DNA of 63,886 nt, the filler included, from Coriobacteriales bacterium (GTDB taxonomy: Bacteria > Actinomycetota > Coriobacteriia > Coriobacteriales > UBA8131), in NCBI GenBank assembly GCA_031263105.1. It is 6 parts of 6 records of this genome, joined end to end, with 100 filler letters (N's around TTAATTAATTAA, not from the genome) between each part and the next. Parts side by side here need not be neighbours in the genome. Positions count along the whole stretch, not along the records: positions 29,494 to 48,449 come from JAISGJ010000163.1; 5 more parts are not named here. One strand, given 5' to 3'. Shown here piece after piece: positions 23,567 to 46,479 of this stretch (position 1 is its first letter; each line of letters begins with the position of its first letter). Below the pieces are notes generated by a model. That model ran no database searches. It was not told the DNA's origin and saw only the letters and a list, made by a program, of their open reading frames with translations. The translations under genes were made by a program, and so were the position numbers.

Positions 23567-24501
23567 CACAGCACCTCCCTCGCATCGAACACCGGGCCGT
23601 CGGCGCAGGCGCGGCGCAGGCCTGTGCGCGTGGGGACCGCGCAGGAGAGGCAGGCGCCGATGCCGCAGGCCATGCGCCGCTCCAGCGAGACTTCGCAGGG
23701 CACGCCTGCCGCAAGGGCCAGCTCGGCGACGATGCGCAGCATCGGCTCCGGCCCGCAGGTCGCCACATAGTCGAAGGCCTCCTGTTGCAGCAGCTCGCGC
23801 GTCACGTCGGTCGTGAGGCCCTTGCAGCCTGCACTGCCGTCGTCGGTGACCGTGACGGTTCCGAGGCGGCCTGCGCCCACGCCGACGGGCACCGCAAGGG
23901 GCACGAGGCAGTCCGCGCTGCGGGCCCCGACAACGAGATGGACGCCCCCTTCTTCCAAGAGCCGCGCCACGAGCATGTTCAGCGGGGCCATGCCGACGCC
24001 GCCCGCCACCACAAGGGCCTTGCGCGTGCCCGGAGGCACCTGCCAGCCCCGCCCGAGCGGGGCGACGAGGTCGAGCGCCGTGCCGGGCCGCACGCCCGCG
24101 AGGAAGCGCGTGCCTGCGCCGACGGTCTGGTAGACGACCTCGACGAAGCCGTTGGAGGCATCCGTCCTGTACACGCTGAAGGGACGTCGCAGCAGACGGG
24201 ATTCGGAACCCGGAAGCGGGAGGTGGACGAACTGCCCCGGCTCCAGGCAGCCCGCCGTGCGCGGCGCGCCGAGCACGAGGCGGAAGATGCCGGAGGCGAA
24301 GGCGCCGTTCTCCTCCACAACGGCCTGCTCGAGGAAGGATGCGGCGGCGGCAGGTCGCGCACCGCCAGCGGGACACGCACCGCCAGCGGGAGGCGCAGGG
24401 CAGGGCGGAAGCCCCGCCGTGCCCTCTCCCCCGTCCGCAGCGCCCACGGCGTCCGCAGCGCCCACGGCGCCCGCAGCGCCCAAGCCCGTACTCCTCATCA
24501 T
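23563..24501 (-). CDS. pyrK: Dihydroorotate dehydrogenase electron-transfer subunit
   Basis: [42 protein letters not shown]. Confidence 0.93.
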
Positions 24502-27500
24502 GCCTCCCATTGTTCGAGGTCCTGCAGGGCCACGGGGTCGAGCTCCCCCGTGCCGGCGGCATCGCGCTGCGCGACCTCGATGGCGCGTATCATGGCGCTC
24601 GCCCCCGCGAGGGTCGTCGCGTAGCAGATGCCGTGACGCACGGCGGCGGTGCGCAGGTGGAAGCCGTCGGAGCGCGTCTGTTGCCCGAACGGCGTGTTGA
24701 CCATGAGGGCGACCATGCCGTTGGCGATCTCGTCGGCGATGTTCGGGCGCTGCTCCTGCACCTTGCGCACGCGGCGCACGGGTATGCCGGCGGCCTCGAG
24801 CGCACGTGCGGTTCCTGCGGTCGAGAGCAGCTCGAAGCCGAGATGGTGCAGGGAGTTCGCCAGCGATATGACCTGACGCTTGTCCCGGTCGCAGACGCTG
24901 ATGAAGGCCGCCCCCTCGGTGGGCAGCGAGTAGTCGATGGCAAGCGCCGCCTTCGCGTAGGCGGTGGGGTAGCTGCGGCCGATGCCCATGACCTCGCCGG
25001 TCGACTTCATCTCAGGGCCCAGGACGATGTCTGCGCCGGGGAAGCGCCCGAAGGGCATGACGGCCTCCTTGACGCTGAAGTGGTCGAGCTCGCGCGCATC
25101 GGACGGCAGCCCGAGCGAGGCGAGGGTCGCGCCCGCCATGATGCGGGCGGCGCACTTCGCGAGCGGGACGCCCGTCGCCTTCGAGGTGAAGGGGACCGTC
25201 CTGCTCGCGCGCGGGTTGACCTCTATGACGTGGACGGCCGTGTCCTTGACGGCGAACTGGATGTTCACGAGCCCGCGCACGCCGACGGCCAGCGCGAGCC
25301 GCACCGTGTGGTCCCTGATCGTGGCGATGATGCTCTCGGAAAGCGAGAAGGGCGGGGTGCAGCAGCTCGAGTCGCCGCTGTGGATGCCGGCCTCCTCGAT
25401 GTGCTCGAGCAGCCCGCCGATGTAGACCTCGGCGCCGTCGCAGAGCGCGTCGACGTCGACCTCGATGGCGCCTTCGAGGAAGCGGTCGAGGTAGACCGGG
25501 TGGTCCGGCGTCACCCTGGCCGCCGCGAGCAGGTGCTTCTCAAGGTAGCGGGTGTTGTAGGCGATGACCATGCCCCGCCCGCCGAGCACGTAGCTCGGAC
25601 GCACGAGCAGGGGGAAGCCCAGCCGCTCGGCGACCTCGCAGGCCTCGTCGAGGGACTCGGCCGTGCCGGCCTCGGGGTAGTCTATCCCCATCCCGTCGAG
25701 CAATGCCGCGAAGCGCTCGCGGTCCTCGGCGAGGTCGATGGCCTCGGGCCTCGTCCCCATGATGCTCACTCCCGCCGCCTCGAGCGCCCGGGCGAGCTTC
25801 AAAGGGGTCTGCCCGCCGAGGGTGACGACGACGCCCTCGGGCCGCTCCGCATCGACGACGTCCATGACGTCCTCGTAGGTGAGCGGCTCGAAGTACAGGC
25901 GGTCGGAGGTGTCGTAGTCCGTCGAGACGGTCTCGGGGTTGCAGTTGACCATGACGGTCTCATAGCCCATCTCGGACAAGGCGTAGGCCGCGTGCACGCA
26001 GCAGTAGTCGAACTCAATCCCCTGCCCGATGCGGTTGGGGCCGGCGCCGAGGATCATCGCGCGCGGCTTGACGGCGGGGCGCACCTCGTCCGTCTCCTCG
26101 TAGGTCTTGTAGCAGTAGCCCGTCTGGCTGTCGAACTCCGCAGCGCAGGTGTCGACGGTCTTGAAGGTGGGGAGAACACCGAGCTGTTTGCGGTATGTGC
26201 GCACCTCGAGTTCGGCATCGGCCCCGTCCAGGCCGCACAGATGCGCGACCTGCGCGTCCGAAAGCCCGAAGCGCTTGGCCTCTCGCAGCTCCTCGGCACC
26301 GAGGCCCGCGAGCGCACGGCCCTCAAGCCCCTGTGCGACGGCGACGATGGCCGCTATCCGATGGAGGAACCAGGGGTCGATGCGCGACGCCTCGGCGACC
26401 TCGGCCACGCTCCAGCCCCGGCGCAGCGCCTCGGCGACGTAGAACAGGCGCTGCTCGGTCGGCACGCCCACCATCTGCGTGAAGCGCTGCTCGTCGAAGG
26501 AGCCCTTCCCGTCGAAGCCGAGCCCCGCACGGCCGTTCTCCAGCGAGCGCATGGCCTTTCCGAGCGCCTCCTCGAAGGTGCGCCCGATGGCCATGACCTC
26601 GCCGACGGCCTTCATGCGCGTCGTCAGCGTGGTGTCGGTTCCCTCGAACTTCTCGAAGGCGAAGCGCGGCACCTTCACGACCACGTAGTCGATGGCCGGC
26701 TCGAAGCAGGCCGGCGTCGCCTTCGTGATGTCGTTGGGCATCTCGTCGAGGGTGTAGCCGACCGCCAGCTTGGCCGCGAACTTCGCGATGGGGAACCCCG
26801 TCGCCTTCGACGCGAGCGCCGAGGAGCGCGAGACGCGCGGGTTCATCTCGATGACCACCATGCGCCCCGTCTGCGGCTCCACGGCGAACTGCACGTTGGA
26901 GCCGCCGGTGGCGACCCCTATCTTCTCAAGGATGGCCAGCGAGGCCACGCGCATGCGCTGGTACTCGATGTCCGTGAGCGTCATCGCGGGCGCGACCGTG
27001 ATGCTGTCGCCGGTGTGCACGCCCATCGCGTCCACGTTCTCGATGGAGCAGACGATGATGCCGTTGCCCTTGGCATCGCGCATCACCTCCATCTCGTACT
27101 CCTTCCAGCCGAGCATGCTCTCCTCGACGAGCACCTCGCCGGCCGGGCTGAGGTCGAGGCCCTGCGCGACCGTCTCACGGAGCTCGGCCAAGGTGTAGGC
27201 GACGCCGCCGCCCGCGCCGCCGAGCGTGTAGGAGGGCCTGAGCACGAGCGGGAAGCCCAGCTCGCGCACAAGCTCCTCGGCGTCCTCGACGCTGTAGGCG
27301 TAGCCCCCGTGCGCGGTGTCGAGGCCGATCTCGGCCATCGCCTCGGCAAAGAGCCTGCGGTCCTCGCCGCGCTCGATGGCCGCGAGGTCGCAGCCGATCA
27401 TCTCGACGCCGTGCTCGTCGAGCACGCCCGAGCGCGCGAGGGCGACGGCGCAGTTGAGGCCCGTCTGCCCCCCGAGCGTCGGCAGCAGCGCATCGGGGCG

Positions 27501-27743
27501 CTCCCGCTCGATGATGCGCCGCACGCTGTCGGGCGTGACGGGCTCGACATAGGTGCGCGTCGCCATCTTCGGGTCGGTCATGATGGTCGCAGGGTTGGAG
27601 TTGACGAGGACGACCTCGAAGCCGTCATCCATCAGCACCTTGCAGGCCTGCGCCCCCGAGTAGTCGAACTCGCAGGCCTGCCCTATGACGATGGGGCCCG
27701 ATCCGATGACCAGTATGCGCCTGATGTCGGTGCGTCTCGGCAT
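24498..27743 (-). CDS. carB: Carbamoyl-phosphate synthase large subunit
   Basis: [28 protein letters not shown]; duplicated ATP-grasp halves; MGS domain. Confidence 0.97.
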
Positions 27744-27748
27744 CCCCC

Positions 27749-29050
27749 TCACCTCCATTCGGCGAGACGGTCGCCCGCCAGGTCGATGTCGAGGTAGTCC
27801 GCACGCCCGTCCATGAGCCGCATGAAGGCCGTGAACAGGTAGTGCGCGTCCGTGGGGCCCGGACTCGCCTCGGGGTGGTACTGCACGCCGAACACCGGAT
27901 GGTCGAGGAAGGCCAGGCCCTCCGGCGTGCCGTCGTTGAGGTTGACGTGCGTGAGCTGTATGCGGCCGAACTCCGCGTTTCGCACGACGGGGGCGCAGCC
28001 GCGCTCTGCCCAGAGGCGCAGGTCGCCTTCGTGCTCCGCAGCGCCGTCGCTCGCCTCGGGGACGAGCGGCCCAAGCGAGGGGAACACGATGCCGAAGCCG
28101 TGGTTCTGGGCGGTTATCTCCACGCGGCGGGTGCGCAGGTTCATCACCGGATGGTTCGCGCCGCGATGGCCGAACCTGAGCTTCTCGGTCTGCGCCCCCG
28201 CGCCGAGCGCGATGAGCTGGTGCCCGAGGCAGATGCCGAACAGCGGCAGCCTGCCGATGAGCGCGCGCGCCGCCGCCGCCGTCTCCCTGACGGGCTCGGG
28301 GTCGCCGGGGCCGTTGGAGAAGAACACGCCGTCCGGCTCCAGCGCCAGCACGTCTGCGGCGGGCGTGTCCCAAGGGACGACGGTCACGCGGCAGCCCGCC
28401 CGATGCAGGTTGCGGAGTATCCCGCGTTTCATGCCGCAGTCGTAGGCGACGACGTGGCGGCGCGGCGCGGGGGCGGGCTTGAGCAGGAAGGCGTAGGCCG
28501 CATCGTCAGCATCGGCGGCGTACTCAAAGGGCTCGCGCACGCTCACGGTACGGGCGAGGTTGAGCGCGACGAGCGACGATGCGGCCTGCGCCTTCGCAAG
28601 CAGGGAGGACACATCGGTATCGACGGTCGAGACGACGGCGCGCATCGCCCCGTTGTCGCGGACATGGCGCGTGAGCCTGCGGGTGTCGACGCCCTCGATC
28701 GCGACGACGCCCTGCTCGACAAGGAAATCCGGCAGGGGGCATTCGGAGCGGAAGTTCGAGGGCTCACGGCACATGTCGCGCACCACGAGCCCGCGCAAGG
28801 CGGGCGTGTCACGTTGCAGGTCGGCACGGGCCACGCCGTAGTTGCCGATCTGCGGATAGGTCATCGCGAGTATCTGCCCGGCATAGCTCGGGTCGCTTAT
28901 GACCTCGGGGTAGCCGACCATCGAGGTGTTGAAGCACAGCTCGCCCGCAACCTCGCCCGCAGCGCCGCAGCCTGTGCCTGCAAAGGACGTGCCGTCCTCC
29001 AGCACCAGCATCGCCGGCGCAGCTGCCCTTGTCCCGCCCGATCCCGTCAT
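27749..29050 (-). CDS. carA: Carbamoyl-phosphate synthase small subunit
   Basis: LEDGT, DPSYAGQ, SNGPGDP, GICLGHQ, QYHPE; start approximate. Confidence 0.96.
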
Positions 29051-29493
29051 CTTCCCACCGTCGTTCTCCGCATGCCCACTCCTCACCGCACATCATGAAG
29101 CGTACAACAAAATGCCCTCATCGTATCGCACGACAAGGGCATGTTGACACGATTCTGGCAATCCCCGCCCGCAGGTGCGTCGAACCGTTGTATACACTTT
29201 ACCTTGTCGGCCTCACGGTACCGCTCTTAAAGGCTCCGTCCATGATACGCCACTGCGCCCCCGATAACAACCGGCCGCGTCGCCTCACAATAAAAGTACT
29301 CCAACCCCCTTCGTTTCCTCAAAATGAAAAAGTACTTGAAAATCGTCTCATCTAAAAGGGAAGGAATGAGATGATATGCCGCTTACCATGTCANNNNNNN
29401 NNNNNNNNNNNNNNNNNNNNNNNNNNNNNNNNNNNNNTTAATTAATTAANNNNNNNNNNNNNNNNNNNNNNNNNNNNNNNNNNNNNNNNNNNN

Positions 29494-29579
<86 letters not shown>

Positions 29580-29718
29580 ATCCGGGGGGATAGGAGAGTG
29601 CGTACAGAGGAGTGTACGTATGGTTGGGGACGTGTCTACGCCTGCATTCCATGTCTTCATCCAAGGATGGTTTTCCTGATTCGCTTCAGGAAAGAGGATT
29701 GCTAGAAAGGGAGATCGT

Positions 29719-31608
29719 ATGGGGAATACAACTGTCTCATCACGTCGAAGCGGTGCTGGTCTGAGTGGCCTGGGAATTGGTGGGGGGATACGTGCGGCGT
29801 TGGCCGCGCTCCTGCTGACCCTGATGTTGGTGCCGACCACGGCCTATGCCGCAGAGTCGCAGGCGGTGACCGCCGACAGGGACGGGGTGGTGAACGTCGC
29901 CCTGTATTACATCTCTGACATCGACGGCACTGCTGTAAAGATTCATCTCGGCCCGGGCTTTCTTATCAACGACAGGCACCTGGTGACCAGCTATAACAAC
30001 GTCAATAACGTCCCCAATAACGGGGGCGCTTCCATTCTCGAACAGCGCTTCATGGACGAGTATGGCAGAGCAAAGGGGATTCTCAGCTTTCGCTCGGATC
30101 ACTTGGAAGCAAGGCTCGTTGTCATGCGGGACGTAGAAATCAAGCTGAGTGTGGTCAACCAGTCCGAAGAAATGGGCTTCAGCATCATGAGGCTCGAACA
30201 GCCCATCAGCGGCAGGACCGCGCTTGCGCTCGGTGACAGCGCGACGATTGCGCAGACCGCAGGCGTCTACGCCCTCGGCTTCCCGGTTCTGAGTACGACG
30301 GAGACGTACACCCCCGCTGACGTGACCATCGAGAGCGGTGCAGTTTCCAGGTCTCTCACCACCGTCAGAGGCATCGACTACATCCAGCACGATGCGAAGC
30401 TCCTCTCGGACGACAGCACAAGCGGCCTTCCCATCGGGGGTGGCAGCGACGGCGGCCCCTTGGTCGACGAGAACGGTGCGGTCGTGGGGATAAACACGCC
30501 CGACCGCAACTCCAACACCGACAGCGGCTTTAGCGGCGGCTACTATTACTCGGTCTCCATAAACCAGATCAAGAACGCCCTTGATGCCCTGAACATCAAT
30601 TACGATACCGCTGCGGAGGCCTCCACGCCCCAACCTGCAGGCGGCAGCTCCACCGGTTCCACGCCTGCGGATTCCACAGAGCCCGACACTCCCGTAGAGC
30701 CCGAGCCGATCGACAAGACGCATCTCACGGCGTGCATCGCCGAATTCACGCCGCTTGCGGACGACCTGAACGCCTACACGGAGGAGTCGGCAAGCCGTTT
30801 CACGGGCGCTCTCAATGCGGCAAAGGCGGTCGCAGCCGATGACACGGCGACCCAGAGGGAGGTGGACAGCTCCGTCAGCACGCTCACCGACGCGCGGCAG
30901 GGCCTCACGGAGAAACCCGGGCTGCCGTTGCCGCTCATACTCGGTATCGGGGCGGCTGCTGTGGTCGTCATAGCCGCTGTGGTCGTCATCGTCATCATCA
31001 ACTCGAAGAAGAAGAAGGCGGCGCCTCTGTCTCAGCCCTCCTTCCCCATGGGCGCCGCGCCGCCCTTCGCGGCCGCGCCGCCCTTCGCGGCCGGTGCCGC
31101 TCCTGCGGCGTCTTCCGGGTTCGATGCGCCCGCTGCCGCCCAGCAGCCGCTCTACACCCCCCCTGCCAACACCCCGAGCGGCGCACCTGCGGCACCCCCC
31201 AGCTTTCAGCCGCCCTCCTACGTGCCGCTTGCCTCCGCCATTGACACGGCAGGGGTGGGCGAGACGACCGTGCTCTATCCTGCGGTGGGCGAGACGAGCC
31301 TGCTCGGCGGCGGCCCGGATGTCATCCTGCTGCGGACGTCGAACGGCGAGCGAGTGCGCATAGACCGCGCCGAGTTCGTCATCGGCAAGGAGCGGAGCAA
31401 GGTGAACTACGTGATTCCTGACAACGGGACCATCTCGCGCCGCCATGCGAAGATCACCCAGCACGACGGCCAGTTCTTCATCACCGACCTGGGCACGACC
31501 AACTTCACCTTCGTCAACGGCAAGAAGATCGCGGCGAACATGGAGAGCCCCCTTGTGAACGGCGATAAGGTGACGCTCTCGGACGAAGAGTTCGTTTTCG
31601 AGGCGTAG
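29719..31608 (+). CDS. Membrane protein: signal peptide, trypsin-like domain with degenerate triad, FIVAR-like helical module, TM helix, Pro/Ala linker, C-terminal FHA domain
   Basis: GFLIN..LVTSYNNV, VYALGFP, GSDGGPLVDENGAVVGIN; YTEES...ALNAAKAV..D..ATQ.EVD; IGKE...ISRRHA...DLGTTNFTFVNG. Confidence 0.88.
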   Translation: MGNTTVSSRRSGAGLSGLGIGGGIRAALAALLLTLMLVPTTAYAAESQAVTADRDGVVNVALYYISDIDGTAVKIHLGPGFLINDRHLVTSYNNVNNVPNNGGASILEQRFMDEYGRAKGILSFRSDHLEARLVVMRDVEIKLSVVNQSEEMGFSIMRLEQPISGRTALALGDSATIAQTAGVYALGFPVLSTTETYTPADVTIESGAVSRSLTTVRGIDYIQHDAKLLSDDSTSGLPIGGGSDGGPLVDENGAVVGINTPDRNSNTDSGFSGGYYYSVSINQIKNALDALNINYDTAAEASTPQPAGGSSTGSTPADSTEPDTPVEPEPIDKTHLTACIAEFTPLADDLNAYTEESASRFTGALNAAKAVAADDTATQREVDSSVSTLTDARQGLTEKPGLPLPLILGIGAAAVVVIAAVVVIVIINSKKKKAAPLSQPSFPMGAAPPFAAAPPFAAGAAPAASSGFDAPAAAQQPLYTPPANTPSGAPAAPPSFQPPSYVPLASAIDTAGVGETTVLYPAVGETSLLGGGPDVILLRTSNGERVRIDRAEFVIGKERSKVNYVIPDNGTISRRHAKITQHDGQFFITDLGTTNFTFVNGKKIAANMESPLVNGDKVTLSDEEFVFEA

Positions 31609-31630
31609 GGCCTCGGGCGCAGGGATCCGT

Positions 31631-32398
31631 TTGGACTTTATCAGCACATACCATACCGACGTGGGGATCAAGAAGAAGACGAACCAGGACTCGTTGTTCC
31701 TCGCGGAGGCACAGAGCGCCCAGGGCAAGGTGTTCCTCGCGGTGATATGCGACGGCATGGGAGGGCTCTCCCAGGGCGAGGTGGCAAGCGCCGCGCTGGC
31801 GAGGGCCTTCCAGGACTGGTTCCGGACGGAACTCCCTCACCTGCTCCAGGAGGGCATCGCCTCCGAGGCACTCTGTGCCAGCTGGCACCAGCTCATCAAC
31901 GGGATGAACACGAGGGTGCTGGAGTACAGCGCACTCAACCATGTGAGCCTGGGGACGACGGTCGTTGCGCTCCTGCTTGTGGAAGGACGCTTCTTCATCC
32001 TTAACGTGGGGGACTCGCGTGTCTATCGTTTCTTCGATGCCCTGCTCCAACTGACGAAGGACCAGACGGTGGTTCAGAGCGAGGTCGACAGGGGCCTGCT
32101 CACGCCCGAGCAGGCGCAGCAGGACTCCCGGCGCAACGTGCTGCTCCAGTGCGTGGGCGCAAGCACGGTCGTCGAGCCGGAGTTCACGCAGGGCAGCTTT
32201 GAGCCGGGCTCGCTGTTCATGCTGTGTTCGGACGGCTTCCGGCACCTGATCACGCCTGCTGAGTTCTGGGAGGCGCTCGACCCTGGGCAGGAAGCTGACG
32301 AGCAGCAACTCTATAACAGCATCGTTTATCTGACGGACATGAACAAGTACCGCCGTGAGGAGGACAACATCTCGGCGATCGTGGTGAAGGCGCAGTAG
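31631..32398 (+). CDS. PP2C-family Ser/Thr phosphatase
   Basis: NQDS, CDGMGG, NVGDSRVY, LCSDG, DNIS. Confidence 0.93.
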   Translation: MDFISTYHTDVGIKKKTNQDSLFLAEAQSAQGKVFLAVICDGMGGLSQGEVASAALARAFQDWFRTELPHLLQEGIASEALCASWHQLINGMNTRVLEYSALNHVSLGTTVVALLLVEGRFFILNVGDSRVYRFFDALLQLTKDQTVVQSEVDRGLLTPEQAQQDSRRNVLLQCVGASTVVEPEFTQGSFEPGSLFMLCSDGFRHLITPAEFWEALDPGQEADEQQLYNSIVYLTDMNKYRREEDNISAIVVKAQ

Positions 32399-32511
32399 GC
32401 GCAGGAGGCGCGGCAAGGGACGGGACACGGCGGGATACGGGGGATACAAGCGGGGTACAAGCGGGGCACGGGCGGGACACGGCGAGAGACAGGGACAGGG
32501 CAGGGCGCAAC

Positions 32512-34275
32512 GTGTTGGAAGTCGGCACACTCATAGACGGCAAGTACAAGGTGCTCAACCAGATAGGACGAGGCGGCATGAGCGTCGTCTACCTGGTCAT
32601 GAACGAGCGCGCCAACAAACAGTGGGCGGTCAAGGAGATCCGCAAGGACGGCGTGGACAACTACGAGATCGTCAAGCAGAGCCTCATCGCCGAGACCGAA
32701 TACCTCAAGCGTCTGCACCACGCCAACCTCCCTTCCATCGTCGACGTCATCGATGCCGACGACACCATCCTCATCGTCATGGACTACATCGAGGGCAACT
32801 CCCTGAACCAGGCGCTCAGGGACTACGGGGCCCTGCCTCAGGACGACGTGGTGAAGTGGGCCAAGCAGCTCGCCGACGTGTTGGGCTACCTCCACGCGCG
32901 CAAGCCTCCGATAATCTATAGGGACATGAAGCCCTCCAACGTGATGCTCCAGCCCAACGGGGACGTGAAGATAATCGACTTCGGCACGGCGCGCGAGTTC
33001 AAGGAGGGACGCTCCGACGACACCGTGCCCCTGGGCACCCAGGGCTATGCGGCGCCCGAGCAGTACGGAAAGCACCAGACGGACGCGCGCACCGACATCT
33101 ACAACCTGGGGGCCACGATGTATCACCTGGTCACCGGGCACAACCCCTGCGAGCCGCCCTATGTGATGCATCCCATCCGTCGATGGAACCCCCAGCTCTC
33201 CTCCGGCCTTGAAAGCATCATCCTCAAGTGCACGCAGCGCGACCCCGACGACCGTTATGCCTCCTGCGCCGAGCTGCTGTACGACCTCGAGCACTACCGT
33301 GAGCTGGACTACGAGTACCGCAGGAAGCGCACCGTCCAGTGGCGCCTGTTTTTGGCCGCCGCCGTGCTCGCGCTGCTCAACGCCCTGGGTGCGGGCGGAT
33401 TCGCCTTCGCGGAGCAGGCCCAGTTGCAAAGTAGCTACGACGTTCTGTTGCAGAGGGCCCAAGAGCAGGGCGCGGGCGGCGACGTCTCGACGGTAGGGGA
33501 CTACTACTGGCAGGCCATCATGCTCGACCCTGTCAACGAGAGGGCCTACAACAGCTTCCTCGACCTCGCGAAGCGCGACCAGGCCTTCGGCAGGGACGAG
33601 AACGAGATGCTGCAGAGGATGCTCTCCGAGCGCACCAGCGACGGTGCCGCGACCAACGTAGAGCGCTTCAAGGCCCGCAACCCCGTCGCCTACGACGCCT
33701 TCGCCTACGATTTGGGCATCGCGTACTACTTTGCCTACGACGAGCGGGGCGGAGGCAGCGAGGGCGGGCAGGGCGACAAGGGCAAGGCCGAGGGCTGGCT
33801 CGGCATCGCGGCGGACTCGGAAACGCTCGACGTGCAGAAGAGCGAGCTGGCGCGTCGTCTCGCCTTCATCGCCACGAACTATGAGCGCTTTTTAAACCCC
33901 AGCGGGGGTGGCAAGGGGAGCGTGCTGAACTCCGAAGAGGTCAGCGCCCGTGACATCTGGACGCAGATGGCGGAATTCAGCGACGGCGACCTCGTCGCCA
34001 CGACCGGCTCCACCTTTGTGGCCATCAAGATCTACTCCGAGGTCATCTACCAGATATACGCACACAACAGCCTCTTCGCAGGAGACGGCGTGACCGAGGC
34101 AGAGATGCTCGGGCAGCTCGACAAGGCGGAGCGTGGCCTTGAAGGGCTGAGCACCCAGAGCGCCGACGAGCAGCAGGAGATAGACGCTGCGCTGGTGCAG
34201 GTCGTGTCTGCCCGGACGAACGTGGGGACCGCCTTCAGGAACCGAGGCTTCAACGGGGGAGGGCAGTCCTCGTGA
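32512..34275 (+). CDS. Hanks-type Ser/Thr kinase with TM helix and helical C-terminal domain
   Basis: GRGGMS, AVKE, YRDMKPSN, DFG, GTQGYAAPE; TM LFLAAAVLALLNALGAGGFAFA. Confidence 0.95.
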   Translation: MLEVGTLIDGKYKVLNQIGRGGMSVVYLVMNERANKQWAVKEIRKDGVDNYEIVKQSLIAETEYLKRLHHANLPSIVDVIDADDTILIVMDYIEGNSLNQALRDYGALPQDDVVKWAKQLADVLGYLHARKPPIIYRDMKPSNVMLQPNGDVKIIDFGTAREFKEGRSDDTVPLGTQGYAAPEQYGKHQTDARTDIYNLGATMYHLVTGHNPCEPPYVMHPIRRWNPQLSSGLESIILKCTQRDPDDRYASCAELLYDLEHYRELDYEYRRKRTVQWRLFLAAAVLALLNALGAGGFAFAEQAQLQSSYDVLLQRAQEQGAGGDVSTVGDYYWQAIMLDPVNERAYNSFLDLAKRDQAFGRDENEMLQRMLSERTSDGAATNVERFKARNPVAYDAFAYDLGIAYYFAYDERGGGSEGGQGDKGKAEGWLGIAADSETLDVQKSELARRLAFIATNYERFLNPSGGGKGSVLNSEEVSARDIWTQMAEFSDGDLVATTGSTFVAIKIYSEVIYQIYAHNSLFAGDGVTEAEMLGQLDKAERGLEGLSTQSADEQQEIDAALVQVVSARTNVGTAFRNRGFNGGGQSS

Positions 34276-34706
34276 GCTTGGAGAGGATGCAGGAGACCAT
34301 CGCCCTGCTGCACGGCGGCATCATAGTCTGCATCGTCCTGGCGGTGTTCTTCTTGGGGCTCGCCGTCCTGTTCTTCTTCCGCTTTCACATCCTCCAGATA
34401 ATCCAGCAAAAGACCGGCGTGACGGCCCGGCGGGAGCTTGCCGCCTTCAACGAGCAGAACAGCATGGCCACGGGCCAACTGGCGAGGAGCAACAGCATCG
34501 CGCTGGGGGAGCGGACTCCGGCGGGTCTCGCGGCCGCGCCCTCGAAGGGGCTGGGGAAGCCCCGCTCTCGCCGCCTCGGCTCGAAGAGGCTCAGCGGTGC
34601 TCCGCCACCCGCCCCGCCTCCGCTGCAACCCCCGCCTCCGGTACCGGAGGGGTTCGTACTGATAAAAGAAGCACTCGTCATTCACACCGACGCAGGGATA
34701 TCCTAA
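34272..34706 (+). CDS. Single-TM hypothetical protein
   Basis: GTGA overlap with the kinase stop; N-terminal TM; Pro-rich tract; C-terminal FVLIKEALVIHTD. Confidence 0.75.
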   Translation: MSLERMQETIALLHGGIIVCIVLAVFFLGLAVLFFFRFHILQIIQQKTGVTARRELAAFNEQNSMATGQLARSNSIALGERTPAGLAAAPSKGLGKPRSRRLGSKRLSGAPPPAPPPLQPPPPVPEGFVLIKEALVIHTDAGIS

Positions 34707-34724
34707 AAGAGAGGGGCACCAACG

Positions 34725-37700
34725 ATGAAGAAGCAGACGCAGGAGCCAAGGGAGCGCGTGCGGAACGCACAAGGCGCACAAGGCGCACAAGGCGCACAGG
34801 GTGCGCGGAACGCACGGGCCGTGCGGAACGTGCGGAGGCGGGAGCCGGCCAAGAGGGCGTTGAGCGTGCTCTGCTCCTTGGCGCTCGTTGCCACGCTCGT
34901 CCCCGCGAACCTCGTGTTCGCGACCGACGCGGCCGCGAAGGACACGTCCCCACAGGGAACCGTCTTCGACACGCCGGTTGCGGACAGGGCCGCCCCGGCA
35001 GCGGCGGAGGAGGAAACGGCCCCAGCAGATGAAGTGGCAGAGGATGCGCCCATATCCGAGGATGCCAAATTCCCCTCCCTCGGAGGGGTGCCCCGAAGGG
35101 GCGGGGTGGTTTCCCCCGATGCGGATGCCACACCTGCTCCCGCCACGGAGGCTCTCCCCGATGCGGATTCCGCACCCACTTCGATTCCAGAGGCAACGGA
35201 TGCTGCGTCTGAGACCACCCCGGCGCTTCGCGCCACCCCTCCGGAGGAGGGGAATGTCGATGCCGCAGCATCGAACGCGGCAAAGGACGCAGAGATCCCG
35301 GCAGCAGAGGATGCCCCATTCCCCTCCGGAGGGGCGGCGCAGAGCGCCGGGGTGGTTCTCCCCGACGCGGGCTCCGCACCCGCCTCCGCCTCCACGACCC
35401 AAGGCGCCTCCACCCTCCAAAGCCAGCTCGACGCCCGCTCCTTCATCCCCTCCCGCACCGCCAAGAGCCTGGGCTTCTCAATACAGAGCGCGGAGGACTA
35501 TGAAGTCACGGCAAGCGCGGTGACCGTGAGCACTTCGGTTTCTCCTACCGCTGTCGAGCCCGATATCACCATTACGGCCACGGGCAATCCGTCGGACACG
35601 CTGACGATCCCTTTCACCGACCTTACGACGGCAAACGGGATAGAGCTCGACTGGGATGCGGCAGGCTTCAAAGGGAGTGCTGGGACCGCCTATGAGACGG
35701 GATGGACGTTTGAGGATGCAAGCCCCAGCGGCAAGCAGATCTCATGGTCGGGTGCGACTCTCGGATACGCCCGCTACCAAGTTGACTTGCAGGGCGCCAA
35801 GCTGAAGGTCACCAACAGCGGCGGTGAGTTCGACGCCTATCTCTCCAGCAAAAGCGTCTCATGGATTTCTGGCGTATCTGATTTGGACGCAGCGAGCGTC
35901 AATGATGTACCTGTGCAGTTCGACCTCACCGGCATCTCGGGGGCGGCGACTGCGGTGCTCGCCGACGCTTCCTCCCTATCATACGTCATCAGCAGCACCA
36001 ACTCACTGGATGCCGACATCTCCGTCGTGGTCACAGAAGCCAGCCAAACAAAGCTCGGCATCGTCAAAGTAGAGGGGCAGATGCAGTACGACAGCGGCGG
36101 CGGCAACTGGCAGGACGTCGGCAGCCCAATCCCGTTTGACGTCTCCGGCGCTCCCGCATACGAGGGCTCCGCCTACCTCTTTCCCACATTCGCCGAACTG
36201 GGCACTCTCAGCGACTCGGAAGGACTGACGCTCACAGGGAAGATACCGTCCAGCAACGGCACAGCCTATGATACCAACCCCCCCTCACGGATGGCGGTCA
36301 CCGTGACCTTCGCCGACGGCACGTCCCAGTCCGCTTCCTCCCCAATCACGGGCATCACCGTGACAGACGACACGGCAGCCCCGACGGTGACGTTGGAATT
36401 TTACGCAGGAACACAAAACCCTTCCACTGAATCCTCCTCCTACTACTACACCGCACGGTCTCTGAAGCTCACCATCGACGACAACGGCATCGAGCTTCCT
36501 CCCGTATATCTGGCCTCGACCTATTCTCCTGACAACGCAGGGCTTATCGAGGCAGCCAGCGCGGACGCTGCTTCGGAATGGGAGAAAGACGACGCCACCA
36601 GCACTTCCAGCAAACTGGTCTTCACGATGGAGCTGCCCGAAGGGGTGTACGACTTCGCTACCACCACTGACGGCTTCGGCGATGCTCTGGACGATTATCT
36701 GCTCACGATTACGGATGCGGGCGGGAACACTCCTGCCACAACCGTTTTCAGCGAATCCATCAAAGCCTTCACCGTCGACGACACGCCGCCCACCGCGACC
36801 ATAACCGGTGTCGCAAGCTTGGGCAATGACCTCGAAGAGAACGGCCTTGAGACCGACCGTTCCGTCACGTATGGGGACTCCGGCAAAAGCTCGTCCGTCA
36901 CTCTCGTGGGCACAGACGCAGGCTCGGACGTGTGGAAGTACACATGGGTGCGCCTCTCCGAGGCCGACTATGCGGGCATCAGCGGCGCGATGCCGTTCTC
37001 GGGCCTCGTGAGCAGCCATTCAGGCAGTAGCGACGTGATCGATGCAACGGACGGGAGCTTCGACCCGAACAACGACCTCAAACTTGATCGGGGCGGCGAC
37101 GACCGCTTCGTCTACGTGCTCCAAGTGATGGACAAGGCAGGCAACACCGCCTACGCCATCTCCAACGGCATCATCGTCGATACTGCGCCCCCGAAGATTC
37201 TTGCGGATTCGATTGTGGTCATGGGTACGGAGGCAAACGGTTTCTATACCGGCGACGTAACTGTGGGCTTCCAGGCCTACGACGACGAGCAGGACGCCGC
37301 TACGGGGACGTCTCAAAAGACCGCTTCTGGCTTGGCAGGGGTGGCCTACGAGCTGTATTACCTCGATGCGAACGGATATAGGGTCGGCGGGGTCACCGCG
37401 CCGTTCAGCTCGGGCGATGCCGCACTGACTGCTGCCCATGCTGCTGAGGATCTTAGTGATAACCTTAATCCGACGTGGGATGAGATACAGGAGAGCTGCA
37501 AATCCACTTCCACCGACGCCTGGGAGTACGAGTTCGCCATTTCGGCGGCGGACGACTACGACCTCTACCCCGGGGTCGAGATCGTGCTCACGGCCACCGA
37601 CCGTGCGGGCAACAGCAACGACCCGGTCAACGGTGCCGATGCTGACGATGCCAAGAAGGAAATCAAGATAGACGCCACGAAACCGAAGGTCGAGCTCAGC

Positions 37701-40700
37701 TTCGACGAGAACGACAAGGCGAACACCTCCAGCGGGGTACCGGTGTACAAGCTCGGCCGCACGGCCACCATCACGGTCACCGAGATGAACTTCGATCCCG
37801 ACGGCGCCAATACCTTCGCCGTGCTGTATAAAGCCTACGAACCGGTGTTGTCCACTACAGAAATTGCCTCCATGACACTCAGCGCTACCGATTGGAACTC
37901 TCTCGGCGGCAGCAAGAAGGACGACACCAAGTATCAGGCAACCATCATCTTCCCCGACGGCGACTACCGCTTGGAGGATTTGTGGGTCACCGATGCAGCG
38001 GGCCATAAGACCGACGAGGCGGTGCCTGCGGATTGGACTAGCTCCGACTTCACGCTTGCCTTTGGAACCAAAGACTACGACAACTTCATCGTTGACACCG
38101 CGGCCCCGAAGGTGACGTTGGAATTTGACGCAGGAACACAAAACCCTTCCACTGAATCATCCACCACCTACTACACCAAAAGGACCGCGAAGCTCACCAT
38201 CGACGACGGCATCTCTCCGCTCCCTGACACATATCAGGACAGCGACCTACCCAGCACTGCCCTCATCGAGAAGGCAGGCGCGACTCCTGGTTCGTGGGTT
38301 AAGGACGCTGTCAACAGCACTGCTGAAAAGCTGGTTTTCACGATGGAGTTGCTCGAAGGGAACTACGACTTCACCAACCAAGGCTTCATCGCTGAGGTGG
38401 ACACCTATCTGGCCACCATTGTGGACATAGGCACGAACAGCCCGCTCAGAGCCTCTGACTTCACGTTCACCGCGACCCCCAAAATCTTCACCGTCGACCA
38501 TACGGCCCCCACTTCGGCCATGGACATCGCAGCTTCGGACGATGCTTGGGGCGCTCCTTCTCTTGAGGATGGCATCGCCTACGGGAACGTGGGCCAGACC
38601 TCGACGGCCATCTTCAGGGGCACGGACGAGGACGCGAGCGTGAACTCGGGCGTGTGGAAGTACCGGTACGTGAGGCTCACCCCGGTCGAGTATGCGGCCA
38701 TCAACGGCAGCACGGACTTTGATACCCTTTACACCACTACTGAAAGCAACGACAGCAGCAATGTCGGCACCAAGGACTCGGACCCCCTTGACCCCTTCGA
38801 GGCGACCCAGCCCCCCGACGCCCGGTTCGTCTACGTGCTGCAGGTGCTGGACAAGGCGGGCAACGCCGCCTACTGCATCTCCAGCGGCACCATCGTCGAT
38901 ACGACGGAACCGGCGATTGACACCTCCGATGGCGACAAGTCCATCAAGGTGTTCGCGCCCAACGCGCTTGACGTGGATGACTTCGTCACTGCGGACGCCA
39001 CGGTGAGCTTCAAGGCCTACGACGTGGAGAACGCTGCAACCGGATGGCAGGGCGTCGCAACCGCCTCCGGCCTTGCGAAGGCGGACTGGAAGCTCTACGG
39101 GATCGATGCGGGCGGCAACAGGGTGGGCAATCCGTTCAAGGTGGGCACTGCCGTCTGGGACGCCAACGGCCAGACGGCGCTTGACGCGGGCTCGACATGG
39201 GCCGACATACAGAAAAGCCTCGACACTTCGACCCCTTGGGACTACCACTTCGAGATAGGGAGCCCCCTCAGCGACTACGACCGCTACCCCCAGGTCGAGA
39301 TCGAGGTCACGGCCACCGACCGCGCAGGCAACGAGAGCGCCCCGGTGTCGAGGAAGGTCAGGATAGACGCCACGAAGCCGAAGGTCGAGCTCAGCTTCGA
39401 CGAGAACGACAAGGTGGCCACCTACAGCGGGGTGCCGGTGTACAAGGTCGGCCGCATGGCCACCCTCACCCTCACCGAGCTGCACTTCGACCCCCGCAAG
39501 CCCGCCTCGTACCGCATCGCCTACGACGCGTACAAGCCGATGACGCAGGGCATCGACCCCAACAGGGCACAGCCTGCCGTCAGCGCCTGGACGCTCGTCG
39601 GCGGGGCGGTGGGCAACAAGGACAGCACCACGTACCAAGCCACCGTCACCTTCCCGGACGGCGACTACCATCTGAACAGCCTGTGGGTCGTCGATGAGGC
39701 GGGCCATCGCACGGACGTGGCAGTGCCCGCAGACCTGGCAGGCGGCGACGTCACGCTCGGCACCGATGTCTACGACTTCGTCATCGACACGGTCGAGCCT
39801 GTGCTCGCCCTCTCGTATCCCACGGAGCTTGTCAGCCCCGCCCGCTACGACAAGACCTACTTCCAGGACCGCAAGGCCCGGGTCGTGATAACGGACGAGG
39901 GCGGCTTCAGACTCTCGCCGGATGGCTACACGATAGAGTACCAAAGGGACGGCAAGCCGGTCTTCGCCTCCCTCACGAGGACTGACAACTACACCCTGAG
40001 CTGGGACCTCGACCTCGGCGATGCCGTGCGGTACGACTTCAGCGGCATTACCGTGACGGCCACGGCGCGCGACCGGGCGCACACCGCGCCCGTGGGCGGC
40101 CAGGGCTTCTCCGCATCCGACATCAACGTCTTTGCGGTGGACGGCGTGAGGCCAAGGGGCGACATACGGCTCGACGACGCTTCCATCGCGTCCAACCCCG
40201 CCAGATCGGAGGCCCGCTACGCTGACTCGCGCTCGAAGCAGAGCGTGACCGTCGAGCTTGCAGGCAACGATGCCGAGGGCACCGGCGTGCAGAAGTACGA
40301 GTACTTCCGCGCCACGCCCGAGGAGGTCGAGGCGATACCCGACGACGTCCGCTTCGACGCTCTGGAGGCGCGTTTCTCCAGCACCGCAGTGGCCATGGTT
40401 CTGCCTGCCTCGCTGCCTGCCGCAGAGCGGACGTTCACGAGGAGCGACACCCAGGACAAGAACGACCGCTACGTCTACGTGCTCAAGGTCACGGACATGG
40501 CGGGCAACGCCGACTATTGGGCAAGCAACGGCATCATCACCGACACCTCCGTGCCAGACGTGCCCACCTTCACCTTCACGGGCACGGACCGCACAGGCAA
40601 CGGCATCTTCTCCAGCGACGTGCGCGTGCGTTTCGAGGCCAACGACCGCACGAGGGCGGCTGCGACCGGCAGCGCACAGACGGCTTCCGGCCTCACGGCG

Positions 40701-42716: not shown

Positions 42717-42793
42717 AAAGCGTGGCAGCTTTGGCACAGCGGAGGGTCGGCAGGGGAAGCGCCCCCTGTCGACTCCCCGCAGCTGGATAAGAC

Positions 42794-44812
42794 ATGGGAG
42801 TCCGAGCCGCAAGTGGGTATCCCTTTGAGCTGCTGCAGGAGATCGGTCGCGGTGGGCTGGGTGTGGTATATCTGGCCTACCACCACCGCCTGCAGAAGCA
42901 CGTCGTTCTCAAACGGGTTCCAACGGGGCCTCTGCGGCTGGACAAACTGCGAGTCGAGGTTGACCTCCTCAAGAACCTGCGCCACAGCTACCTGCCGCAG
43001 GTCTACGACTTCATACAGGTGGGCAATGACGTGTTCACCGTCATGGAGCACGTCCAGGGTGTAAGCCTTGCACATTATCTGAGGGAGGGCATCCGTCCGT
43101 CGCAGGCACAGATGATAACGTGGATGTGCCAGCTCGGGGAGGTCCTCGACTATCTCCACTCGTGCGACCCGCCGGTCATCCACAGCGACATCAAGCCGGA
43201 CAACATCATGATAACCCCGCGCGGCGACGTCTGTCTCATTGACTTCAGCATATCTCAGGGCGAGGGATCGACGGCCCTTCTCGGCATCAGCGACCTCTAC
43301 GCCTCTCCGGAGCAGGCGGCCTTGGCCCACGAGGTGCGGATGGGTGCCCGTGCAGGTGCAGGTCAGGACATGTGGGGCGGGGCTGCTGTTTCGCCGCTTC
43401 AGCGGCAGGGCGAGCATTCCCGCCCCATGCGCACCGCCCGCCTGTCTCCCCAGTCGGACATCTACAGCCTTGGTGCGACTTTCTACTGGCTTGTCCTCGG
43501 CATACAGCCGGTTCAGGTCGTCTGCCCCTTGCCTCCGCTGGAGGAGTACGCAGAGGACTACGCGCTCCCGTATGACCGGGCCTTTCTCCGTGTCATCGAC
43601 CAGGCGGTCGGCGCACGGGGCAAGCGCATCACGTCGGCGGTGAGGTTTTTGGAAGTGCTGGGGAACCTCCAGCGCCTTGATGCGCACTACCAATGGAACC
43701 GGCGTTTGCAGTGGGCGACGGGTGCCACATCGGCGCTGCTGCTGCTCGTGGGCTTCCTACTCTCCTTGTACGGATGGTCGTACATGCAGAATGCCGCCTT
43801 CCAGGACACCCTGCGCGAGTTCAGGCAGCTGGTGGCCGTCGGCACCAACGACGCCATCGTCAGCAGGGGCTATCAGGTGCTGAACGACCCCGCCCTCCGC
43901 CCTCTGTTCGAGGAGCGGCCGCAGGACAAGGCGGAGGTGCTGCACACCATGGGGGACTGCTACTTCCAAAACGACGACTACGCCGCCGCGCTGCCGCTGT
44001 ACGCCGAGGCGCTTGACGTGGGGAAGGGCACGCAGGAGGCGGCGGCCTATTATCGCGATTACGCCATAGCGCTTGCTCGCGGGGGGTCTTACGACGAGGC
44101 CCTTGTCGTGCTCTGGGATGCGGAGGCCCGTGGGGTCACGGAGGCCTCGTTGCTGCTTGTCCGAGCCGAGATAGCCTACGCGACGGCATCGCGCACGGGC
44201 GGTACGCGCGATGGGCAGGCTGCGTTCGAGCTCGCCTTCGCGCTTCTTGCAAGAGGGGGCAACGAGCCCGAGCTGGTGCAGCGCGTCCACATCCTCCTCT
44301 CCCAGATATACCGTGAGCGCGGGGACTGGGAGGCCAGCATCGAGAGTCTGAGGAAGGCCAACGCCGCGCTCCCGAGCGCTGTGACGCTGCGCCGCCTGGC
44401 CGATGCCTGCGCACTGTATGCGCCCATGACGACCAGGGAGGGCGAGAAGGAGCGGCTGCTCAAAGAGGCGCGGTCGAACTACGAGGCGTTGTGCGCGCTG
44501 TCTGCCCCCGCGCCGGGCGATCGCCTCAACCTGGCAATCGTCCTGCGCTCGCTGGGCGAGTACCCCACGAGCGAACGGATGCTCAAGGACCTTCTCGCCG
44601 AGGGGCTTGACGACTATCGGGTAGCCATGAACCTCGCCTTCCTCTACGAGATGACCGGCAAGGAGGATGATGCCCTTTCCTTCGGCACATACGCGCGGCG
44701 GGCATACGACAACACTCCGGCCCCAAGCCGGGAGGCGCATGACAGCGCCAATATACAGGCGCTCGACAAGCTGCTCAGGAGGCTGGGCTCGAGGGAGGGG
44801 TCAGATGGATGA
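42794..44812 (+). CDS. Second Ser/Thr kinase (non-RD) with TM helix and TPR-like repeats
   Basis: GRGGLG, VLKR, HSDIKPDN, DFS, YASPE, SDIYSLGAT; TPR-like MGDCYFQNDDYAAA, YAIALARGGSYDEA. Confidence 0.9.
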   Translation: MGVRAASGYPFELLQEIGRGGLGVVYLAYHHRLQKHVVLKRVPTGPLRLDKLRVEVDLLKNLRHSYLPQVYDFIQVGNDVFTVMEHVQGVSLAHYLREGIRPSQAQMITWMCQLGEVLDYLHSCDPPVIHSDIKPDNIMITPRGDVCLIDFSISQGEGSTALLGISDLYASPEQAALAHEVRMGARAGAGQDMWGGAAVSPLQRQGEHSRPMRTARLSPQSDIYSLGATFYWLVLGIQPVQVVCPLPPLEEYAEDYALPYDRAFLRVIDQAVGARGKRITSAVRFLEVLGNLQRLDAHYQWNRRLQWATGATSALLLLVGFLLSLYGWSYMQNAAFQDTLREFRQLVAVGTNDAIVSRGYQVLNDPALRPLFEERPQDKAEVLHTMGDCYFQNDDYAAALPLYAEALDVGKGTQEAAAYYRDYAIALARGGSYDEALVVLWDAEARGVTEASLLLVRAEIAYATASRTGGTRDGQAAFELAFALLARGGNEPELVQRVHILLSQIYRERGDWEASIESLRKANAALPSAVTLRRLADACALYAPMTTREGEKERLLKEARSNYEALCALSAPAPGDRLNLAIVLRSLGEYPTSERMLKDLLAEGLDDYRVAMNLAFLYEMTGKEDDALSFGTYARRAYDNTPAPSREAHDSANIQALDKLLRRLGSREGSDG

Positions 44813-44975
44813 CGGTCTTGCCCTGCTGGTGGCCGGGGTCGTTCTGATGGCGCTTGCCCTTTGCGCCTTTGTGGCGGGGGAGTTCCTGCTCGCCCGGCGT
44901 CAGAGGGCGCTGAGGGAGCGCTACCAGCTGCCATGCGTCGACATGCGGCTCCGACAGGCAGGCAAGGAACGGTAA
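44805..44975 (+). CDS. 56-aa single-TM protein
   Basis: GGAGG RBS, overlap with the kinase end, LALLVAGVVLMALALCAFVAG followed by a basic tail. Confidence 0.65.
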   Translation: MDDGLALLVAGVVLMALALCAFVAGEFLLARRQRALRERYQLPCVDMRLRQAGKER

Positions 44976-45015
44976 GGTAATCAGTTCCCAAGGACAGAGA
45001 GGCCAGGTAGGGACA

Positions 45016-46242: not shown

Positions 46243-46272
46243 CAGCTGGCCCATGCAGGAGCAGGCAGCACT

Positions 46273-46475
46273 GATAAAGCAAGGGTCTTGCGACGTTTGG
46301 AGCGGATCAAGGGGTGCGGCGAATTGGGGGACTGGTCTTCTGTCGGCGATGGCGTCAACGAACTCAGGTTCCCTTTCGGGCCAGGCTTGCCGTCGATGGC
46401 AACCCCAGCTTCTTTACGGTGAAGAAGGTGCTCGACGCAATGAATGCGAGCCTTGTGCCCACCGCCAAGGCGTGA
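46273..46475 (+). pseudogene. Internally deleted HigB/HigA-like addiction module (killer N-part joined to antidote C-part)
   Basis: Hand translation DKARVLRRLERIKGCGELGDWSSVGDGVNELRFPFGPG (46273-46386), then in a shifted frame LAVDGNPSFFTVKKVLDAM...* (46386-46475). Confidence 0.7.
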
Positions 46476-46479
46476 GGCG

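Follow-up and report, generated by a model that had tools for sequence, protein, structure and literature searches.

Gene, protein and genomic setting

The window analysed here is a stretch of 63,886 nucleotides (nt), fillers included, made of six parts of the genome of a Coriobacteriales bacterium (assembly GCA_031263105.1) joined end to end. On its plus strand it carries a gene for a membrane protein (Table 1) whose extracellular part, hereafter called the head, has the sequence of an HtrA-type protease without the catalytic triad, and whose cytoplasmic part contains an FHA domain. The gene is located on positions 29494-48449, a single 18,956-nt contig of a metagenome-assembled genome (MAG) that consists of 250 contigs, is 86% complete and 6.5% contaminated, and is the sole representative of its genus among the genomes compared. 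Immediately upstream, positions 29394-29493 correspond to the contig join, in which runs of N flank the linker TTAATTAATTAA. An 86-nt poly-C run comes next (join and poly-C together cover 29394-29579) and, standing at the start of the contig, is likely to be a sequencing artefact. The carA/carB-like open reading frames (ORFs) found on the minus strand at 24498-29086 belong to a different contig and are therefore not neighbours of the gene.

Table 1. Features of the gene and of the genes downstream of it (positions are those of the window).
Feature	Position	Strand	Basis
Whole gene, 629-residue single-pass type-I membrane protein	29719-31608	+	uninterrupted ORF, translation, Pfam
Predicted Sec signal peptide, residues 1-44 (RR n-region, hydrophobic core, AYA/AE cleavage site)	29719-29850	+	sequence by eye
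HtrA-type (Trypsin_2, S1C-like) ectodomain without catalytic triad	29851-30618	+	Pfam PF13365, AlphaFold 2, Foldseek, VIA
Codons 93-94 (AAC AAC): catalytic His replaced by N93, and a 96%-conserved Val by N94	29995-30000	+	alignment
Lineage-specific 10-residue insertion GRAKGILSFR (116-125), between the His and Asp positions	30064-30093	+	7-sequence alignment
Codon 153 (GGC): catalytic Asp replaced by Gly	30175-30177	+	alignment
Lineage-specific 11-residue acidic/Ser-rich insertion LSDDSTSGLPI (229-239), directly before the former GNSGG loop	30403-30435	+	alignment
Codons 243-244 (AGC GAC): Asn of GNSGG replaced by S243, and the catalytic Ser by D244	30445-30450	+	alignment
FIVAR-like helical spacer, residues 332-396	30712-30906	+	PF07554 E 1.2e-4, 23.1 bits, under the cut-off of 29.2
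Transmembrane helix, residues ~403-427, followed by KKKK (positive inside)	30925-30999	+	sequence by eye; kept in homologues
Two Thr motifs, GVGETTVL and VGETSLL (512-529), each with Leu at Thr+3	31252-31305	+	7-sequence alignment
FHA domain, residues 554-620	31378-31578	+	PF00498 E 8.2e-15
PP2C-type Ser/Thr phosphatase, 22 nt downstream of the pseudoprotease gene	31631-32398	+	PF13672 E 1.2e-12
Hanks-type Ser/Thr kinase, one transmembrane helix (~277-300), 287-residue ectodomain without Pfam family	32512-34275	+	PF00069 E 3.9e-51
2,663-residue ORF, bacterial immunoglobulin (Ig)-like domains (Big_13, Big_3_3, Big_3_2) only near the C-terminus	34725-42716	+	domain matches
Second Ser/Thr kinase fused to TPR repeats, 672 residues	42794-44812	+	domain matches
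TPR and CarboxypepD_reg protein, 408 residues	45016-46242	+	domain matches

A first-pass annotation of this DNA had singled out 29878-30498 (residues 54-260), which covers the protease-like domain, as a trypsin-like pseudoprotease in an otherwise intact receptor. The ORF is uninterrupted, as it had stated, and a purine-rich GGGAG stretch can be recognised by eye about 5 nt upstream of the ATG. The signal peptide and the transmembrane helix, both read from the sequence, place the protease-like head outside the cell and the FHA domain inside, and the SYA/AETQAVTAD junction at the end of the signal peptide is kept among close homologues. Many homologues are annotated with the FIVAR family (PF07554), which our protein matches under the cut-off. 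In contrast to HtrA proteases, the 629-residue protein has no PDZ match in Pfam at E values up to 0.1. We also found in it no Pfam or NCBIfam match to the RsgI N-terminal anti-sigma domain or to the autocleaving periplasmic domain of RsgI proteins. The cytoplasmic linker (residues 430-510) is rich in Pro and Ala and contains a short tandem Pro/Ala repeat, AAPPFAAAPPFAAGAAPAA, at window positions 31040-31100 (residues 441-460).

The cytoplasmic half resembles known phosphothreonine-reading modules. The FHA domain scores 55.4 bits against a PF00498 cut-off of 20.7, which places it within this family. FHA domains contact phosphothreonine through an Arg, a Ser-x-x-His pair and an Asn. In the alignment with the FHA domains of GarA and OdhI (E 4e-6 to 1e-5), S573, R574, H576 and N595 are kept. 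The Arg is replaced by K557, G556-K557 standing at the Gly-Arg position, and this Lys is invariant in the 7 closest sequences and found family-wide. The proposal of the first-pass annotation that the head is wired to a cytoplasmic FHA domain is thus upheld, the phosphothreonine-binding residues being conserved with the exception of this R to K change. The OdhI profile of NCBIfam is matched with an E value of 1.9e-8 and 34.2 bits, below its cut-off of 200, and our 629-residue membrane protein is neither a GarA/OdhI equivalog nor a small soluble protein. Upstream of the FHA domain, G512, G514, T516, T517, L519, G524, E525, T526, L528 and L529 are invariant in 7 sequences amid a variable linker, and the ETT/ETS motifs are also present in the 82-sequence consensus. 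We propose these GETT/GETS motifs as candidate phospho-acceptor and FHA-docking sites.

An HtrA-type head without a catalytic triad, and its relatives

The head is matched by Trypsin_2 (PF13365) over residues 79-258 (E 6.5e-11, 43.6 bits against a cut-off of 27.6). The three motifs in which the catalytic residues of HtrA proteases lie read LVTSYNNV (88-95), EEMGFSIMRL (150-159) and GSDGGPL (242-248), exactly as reported by the first-pass annotation. Its claim that all three catalytic residues have been replaced was confirmed at several levels. In pairwise phmmer alignments with solved HtrA/Deg proteases, the catalytic Asp pairs with G153 and the Ser of GNSGGPL with D244. When a profile built from 82 members of the family is aligned with human HTRA1 (E 8.9e-24), the H, D and S columns of the family fall on those of TNAHVV, DIALIKI and GNSGGPLV. 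Finally, we aligned the protein with 259 homologues (120 from a word-index search and 139 from an exhaustive HMMER search). The His column is H in 249 of them, the Asp column is D in 257 and the Ser column is S in 249, where our protein has N93, G153 and D244, respectively. The exchange of His for Asn stands with one precision: it is the first of the two Asn residues (N93, AAC) that is equivalent to the His, and the next residue, V94 in the family, is also changed to N. These equivalences rest on sequence and profile alignments, the fold searches having provided aligned ranges. With N93, G153 and D244 at the canonical positions instead of His-Asp-Ser, the head does not qualify as an active protease of the S1C family.

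The changes are concentrated at the catalytic centre. In 72 homologues whose H/D/S triad is intact, 20 columns reach a conservation of at least 95%, of which our protein keeps 16 and changes four (H93N, V94N, D153G and S244D); at a threshold of at least 90%, five of 28 columns are changed, the fifth being the conservative K211R. Since all four changed columns sit at the catalytic centre, the damage is focused and does not reflect general decay. The structural motifs G.VVGIN, VYALGFP and GGPLV are kept, in agreement with the first-pass annotation. At least seven nucleotide changes separate codons 93, 94, 153, 243 and 244 from CAC, GTN, GAC, AAC and AGC, which excludes a slip in base calling. 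The head also carries a query-specific 6-residue deletion between the His and Ser motifs, and two insertions (Table 1). The insertion that precedes the last motif, previously estimated at about 10 residues, is 11 residues long, is missing from all six closest homologues (6/6) and lies at what we take to be the L1 loop of HtrA proteases.

We next consider the fold. The AlphaFold 2 model of the head has a predicted local distance difference test (pLDDT) score of 88.8 and a predicted TM score (pTM) of 0.89. It is weaker only around the insertions, with a pLDDT of 67-76 at 229-239 and a reduced pLDDT near 116-125 as well. The best matches of the model are HTRA1 and HTRA3: the top Foldseek match is HTRA1 (E 9.5e-15, TMt 0.79), and the VIA comparison with the HtrA3 protease domain gives a Z of 23.7 and a root-mean-square deviation (rmsd) of 2.4 over 189 aligned residues. 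As modelled, the head has the two-barrel chymotrypsin fold of the HtrA type and belongs by fold with the Trypsin_2/S1C proteins, which bears out the fold proposed in the first-pass annotation.

Loss of the triad is not a singularity of our protein. We identified 10 further homologues with substitutions at triad positions (P0160, P0163, P0169, P0173, P0197, P0212, P0223, P0249, P0250 and P0259); four other rows without H/D/S among the 259 are truncated or doubtful and were left out. These 10 sequences are scattered over several separate places of the 259-sequence tree, and degenerate sequences alone make up two of the clades (P0212/P0249/P0250/P0259 with a support of 1.0, P0223/P0197 with a support of 0.98). 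We also counted 81 Trypsin_2 ORFs in 79 genome loci, located with a 7-row alignment. The triad is intact in 22 and degenerate in 8 of the 30 ORFs fused to an FHA domain, and intact in all 51 non-fused ORFs (Fisher p = 1.8e-4, a value that overstates the case because kin are not independent). Restriction of dead heads to the FHA-fused branch of this sample (8/30 vs 0/51) suggests that in this receptor family the main job of the head may be recognition and not cutting.

The degenerate heads of the genome loci, given by the residues at the His, Asp and Ser positions, come from one Atopobiaceae MAG (SDV), Butyrivibrio fibrisolvens 16/4 (HDY), B. proteoclasticus P6B7 (YDC), Pseudobutyrivibrio xylanivorans DSM 14809 (DDY), P. 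ruminis CF1b (DDY), a Pseudobutyrivibrio MAG with two in one locus (HDY and QDV) and a second Pseudobutyrivibrio MAG (QNN). In the locus with two, the FHA-fused Trypsin_2 genes (L043:6944-8527 and L043:11544-13076) flank the PP2C and kinase genes; loci L040 and L065 have a second FHA match at the same relative place as in L043.

The gene belongs to a conserved trio. The order protease-transmembrane-FHA, PP2C, kinase is found in 19 of the 79 species-representative loci, and the genes that start at 29719, 31631 and 32512 in the window fit this order. The trio loci come from Coriobacteriales, Oscillospiraceae, Ruminococcus, Ruthenibacterium, Lachnospira, Butyrivibrio and Pseudobutyrivibrio, Lachnospiraceae thus being included. 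The kinase, a conserved neighbour at 61-85% identity, has well-preserved catalytic motifs, K41 being nearly invariant and D138, N143 and the DFG at 156-158 invariant. Across the 19 trio loci, identity to the window proteins is 62-85% for the kinase domain, 34-66% for PP2C, 35-66% for the FHA domain and 25-49% for the head. Having the lowest identity, the head generally evolves fastest within the module, which is what one would expect of a recognition element that faces outward. The full trio is kept in five of the loci with degenerate heads. As degenerate members occur in separate clades and in trio loci, the family has repeatedly lost catalysis while keeping the receptor, and this state has been long-lived.

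We then looked at the closest relatives. The best identity found in the head is 48% with the word index (5.8 billion), 53% with the exhaustive HMMER search and 56% in the genomes of the organism's family, the genomes compared being those of 40 relatives in a first round and the family's 33 remaining genomes in a second. Four of the 34 family genomes, its own included, contain a match at E ≤ 1e-15, many of the 34 being incomplete. The closest full-length homologues (48-56% identity in the head) come from Coriobacteriales MAGs and all have H/D/S. A scan of metagenome contigs with six 8-residue patterns returned 595 stretches with no relative among them. In its own genome there are two Trypsin_2 matches, the gene itself and a canonical 613-residue HtrA (C164) with an intact triad, whose C-terminal extension was read as a PDZ domain by eye. 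Housekeeping proteolysis is thus covered.

The DNA of the window was found in termite-gut runs, and no RNA run is listed among the datasets that match the stretch. Run X1, a termite-gut metagenome that is the probable source of the MAG and as such not independent support, contains the whole stretch, with a 5,206-nt contig on 29592-32400 that shows 0 differences at a depth of 25. A second sample from the same study (X2) contains a 1,175-nt contig on 29603-30781 that is ~94% identical, with 73 substitutions. Its indels comprise two pairs of 1-nt indels that cancel out, a deletion of 3 nt and, upstream of the ATG, a deletion of 1 nt. At the insertion 229-239 there are only compensating 1-nt indels (30417/30421), and no gap is reported at the insertion 116-125. 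Since the indels compensate or amount to 3 nt, this relative keeps the reading frame and both insertions. The linker differs in length between close relatives, as X2 skips parts of it (joints 31052-31130 and 31154-31247). A different contig of X2 covers the FHA end; of the 24 differences listed there within the gene, 17 fall in third codon positions (manual count). Runs X2 and X3 cover the stretch only in part, and the parts they leave uncovered carry no meaning.

In small maximum-likelihood trees, the path from the common ancestor to our protein is 0.519 for the head, compared with 0.40-0.63 for the five closest intact sisters, and 0.34 for the FHA region, compared with 0.29-0.45. Two more distant tips beneath the same node of the head tree have paths of 1.09 and 1.26. 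For the part comprising the ETT motifs and the FHA domain, identity is 62-73% between our protein and its sisters and 61-83% among the sisters. We considered that the head might evolve much faster than its active sisters and rejected this, since its path length falls inside the range of the five closest, though pairwise identity is lower.

Possible function of the head

Taken as a whole, our results make it fairly probable that the head is a catalytically dead HtrA-like pseudoprotease that has been selected as the outward-facing head of a single-pass phospho-switch adaptor. The following mechanism can be proposed. Without cleaving, the head would bind something extracellular through the former active-site cleft, which would have been remodelled and made acidic by the insertion and by D244. 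The ligand might be a peptide or protein, a polysaccharide, a metal or the ectodomain of the neighbouring kinase. Occupancy or clustering could then alter the way in which the kinase encounters the cytoplasmic tail. The tail, with its ETT/ETS motifs followed by FHA, would act as a membrane-tethered switch of the GarA/OdhI kind: the kinase would write phosphothreonine on the motifs and PP2C would erase it. Acting in cis or in trans, the FHA domain would recognise either the ETT motifs or the kinase in its phosphorylated form, and adaptor partners would be switched as a result. The first-pass annotation had already proposed a repurposed sensor, and the HtrA-fold pseudoprotease outside the cell on an FHA receptor stands. 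That it binds a peptide or protein stays a proposal, a polysaccharide ligand being equally possible because of the precedent of RsgI9 (see below).

Known systems offer partial parallels. MamO and the S1C sensor of RsgI9 are the closest precedents, and our protein is assigned to neither family. Like the head, MamO has a bacterial trypsin-2/HtrA-fold domain with a degenerate triad and a non-catalytic role. MamO binds transition metals through a di-histidine motif, activates MamE and belongs to a magnetosome island, whereas our head is joined by a single transmembrane helix to an FHA domain, and kinase and phosphatase genes accompany its gene. No magnetosome genes are present in the contig, and the NCBIfam MamE profile gives 27.1 bits with our protein for a cut-off of 800. 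As in our family, pseudoproteases of the MamO family are reported to have arisen several times independently (PMC4794232).

RsgI9, an anti-sigma factor of Clostridium thermocellum, shares with our protein single-pass transmembrane signalling, an anaerobic Gram-positive host and an outward S1C protease-like sensor, which is said to have lost its triad as well. Our model superposes on the RsgI9 structure 7sjy_A with a Z of 21.3 and an rmsd of 2.5 over 186 aligned residues (VIA, 17% identity). Cellulose binding has been reported for the S1C-like domain of RsgI9 (PMC12203970), and gut and rumen bacteria that degrade fibre are the source of many members of our family. The signal of RsgI9 reaches a sigma-I factor through regulated proteolysis, and the protein is built with an NTF2 domain and, at its N-terminus, an RsgI domain. 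Our protein, by contrast, has an N-terminal signal peptide and cytoplasmic ETT motifs with an FHA domain, and PP2C and a Hanks kinase stand alongside.

The head shares the chymotrypsin-type fold with HtrA, DegP, DegS and HTRA1 (MEROPS S1C), together with the L2-type G.VVGIN, the VYALGFP strand and GGPLV. It departs from them in having neither the His-Asp-Ser triad nor a PDZ domain, and in having a signal peptide, a C-terminal transmembrane helix and an FHA domain. GarA and OdhI, phospho-switches of Actinobacteria, resemble the tail in their ETT(S/V) motif N-terminal to the FHA domain and in the Hanks kinase and PP2C encoded close by. They are small soluble regulators of tricarboxylic acid cycle and glutamate enzymes, whereas our module is tethered to the membrane under an extracellular head.

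The nearest kin are the Trypsin_2-(FIVAR)-transmembrane-FHA receptors of gut Clostridia and Coriobacteriales, which have the same architecture and the same trio and of which our protein is a member. Most of these receptors keep H/D/S, unlike our protein and the 8 of 30 FHA-fused ORFs described above. A literature search, which left subscription journals mostly uncovered, returned no paper on a Trypsin_2-FIVAR-transmembrane-FHA receptor with PP2C and kinase. The passages of PMC7159879 that mention FHA and trypsin-like domains treat them only as separate effector domains of conflict systems. Our protein is best described as a pseudoprotease of the bacterial S1C type that forms part of a signalling module not yet characterised.

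Several points weigh against a selected, ligand-binding head. Binding, ligand and phosphorylation are all inferred from sequence, and the AlphaFold 2 model was built on an alignment of active homologues, hence it is not independent proof of folding. Every full-length homologue within reach keeps the triad. Identity in the head is 50-54% between our protein and its sisters compared with 64-76% among the sisters, and some relaxation of constraint on the head is possible from these sequence comparisons. For the head, the evidence from X2 is limited to the frame and the two insertions. The fraction 8/30 overstates the number of independent events because the five degenerate loci with the kinase trio form one clade, Butyrivibrio/Pseudobutyrivibrio. 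Finally, the host genome is a MAG with the contamination given above, and the gene begins only 226 nt from the contig start.

Some of these points would suit a gene in decay, in which catalysis was lost fairly recently in one lineage and the head has since been drifting, either as a remnant or with only the FHA part still mattering. The first-pass annotation had taken close orthologues that are all active as a sign of recent decay. Taken literally this is what we found, and yet at 48-56% identity the intact homologues are too distant to demonstrate recent decay. The greater divergence of the head than of the FHA region from the sisters, the two lineage-specific insertions and the deletion, and a terminal branch of 0.537 compared with a family median of 0.277 also point in this direction. 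Nonetheless, all 16 non-catalytic columns conserved at 95% or more are kept (16/16), the path length falls within the range of the five closest active sisters, the ORF is intact, and the X2 relative at ~94% identity keeps the frame and both insertions. Other lineages with dead heads have moreover persisted and diversified, and we consider decay unlikely. An assembly, binning or sequencing artefact near the contig end can be given almost no weight. While the poly-C run ends 140 nt before the ATG and the MAG is 6.5% contaminated, the contig of X1, albeit the probable source, shows no difference, the independent sample X2 has the same indel structure, and an artefact would have to account for seven or more nucleotide changes spread over five codons.

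The dead head could also serve as a non-catalytic partner which, instead of sensing a free ligand, presents substrates to a true protease such as the canonical HtrA or activates it allosterically, or pairs with the kinase ectodomain. A precedent exists, since MamO activates MamE-dependent proteolysis without catalysis and active/inactive pairs have evolved repeatedly (PMC4794232). A single intact HtrA is present in the genome, the ectodomain of the kinase is strictly conserved as a neighbour and evolves fast like the head, and one Pseudobutyrivibrio locus has two FHA-fused copies. However, both of these copies are degenerate (HDY and QDV) and do not form an active/dead pair, and no second FHA-fused copy was found in the 86%-complete genome of our organism. 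We thus hold a partner role to be rather improbable.

It is very unlikely that the head has kept hydrolase activity by means of an unconventional set of catalytic residues, such as a nucleophilic S243 paired with H87 or H224. A Ser does stand one position ahead of the canonical nucleophile (GGSDGG), and His residues occur at 87, 128 and 224. But S243 takes the Asn position of GNSGG, and H224 is a family-wide residue of the YIQHSA motif that is also found in proteins with the canonical triad. The Asp position is held by Gly and the nucleophile position by an acidic residue, and we know of no S1C enzyme with a set of the S243 type, although no search was aimed at one.

To our knowledge, bacterial pseudoenzymes are still few and almost none has been tied to a signalling pathway. 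More tentatively, and with considerable doubt, the family may represent an undescribed receptor class of anaerobes of the gut, the rumen and the termite hindgut. In these receptors, an HtrA-like head, active in most members and repeatedly killed, would sit on a GarA-like ETT/FHA switch written by the co-encoded kinase and erased by PP2C. The dead heads, ours with its acidic remodelled cleft among them, would be true ligand sensors, possibly of plant polysaccharide or its breakdown products as in RsgI9, and pseudoprotease sensing would feed directly into bacterial Ser/Thr phospho-signalling. Active and inactive variants provide a natural set for probing how Gram-positive anaerobes link an extracellular event to Ser/Thr phosphorylation. 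The question is directly testable, as there are cultured carriers of dead heads, namely Butyrivibrio fibrisolvens 16/4, Pseudobutyrivibrio xylanivorans DSM 14809 and P. ruminis CF1b. Should the gene simply be decaying instead, the matter would reduce to a minor annotation point, 'trypsin-like peptidase' being a misnomer for it.

Further observations on the contig and related loci

The ectodomain of the trio kinase (residues 301-587) shows only 24-58% identity among the loci with a match, compared with 62-85% for the kinase domain in the 19 trio loci, and has a few invariant residues (P340, D356 and W483). A complex prediction for the head (45-300) with this ectodomain gave scores of 0.00, 0.40 and 0.00 for a mark of 0.32, without controls, and carries no weight either for or against an interaction.

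The contig is unusually rich in Ser/Thr signalling genes (Table 1). The 2,663-residue ORF with Ig-like domains starts 449 nt past the kinase gene and may be a surface protein of the same locus. In locus L012, from the closest relative, a Coriobacteriales MAG, a weak match (25% identity) to its N-terminal 600 residues also follows the kinase. The kinase orthologue of this relative, 85% identical in the kinase domain, has an in-frame stop at L012:2994-2996, where LIA*TEYL stands in place of LIAETEYL (Glu in the window). This is either a sequencing error or a broken kinase, and the head encoded in L012 is catalytically intact as judged from its sequence.

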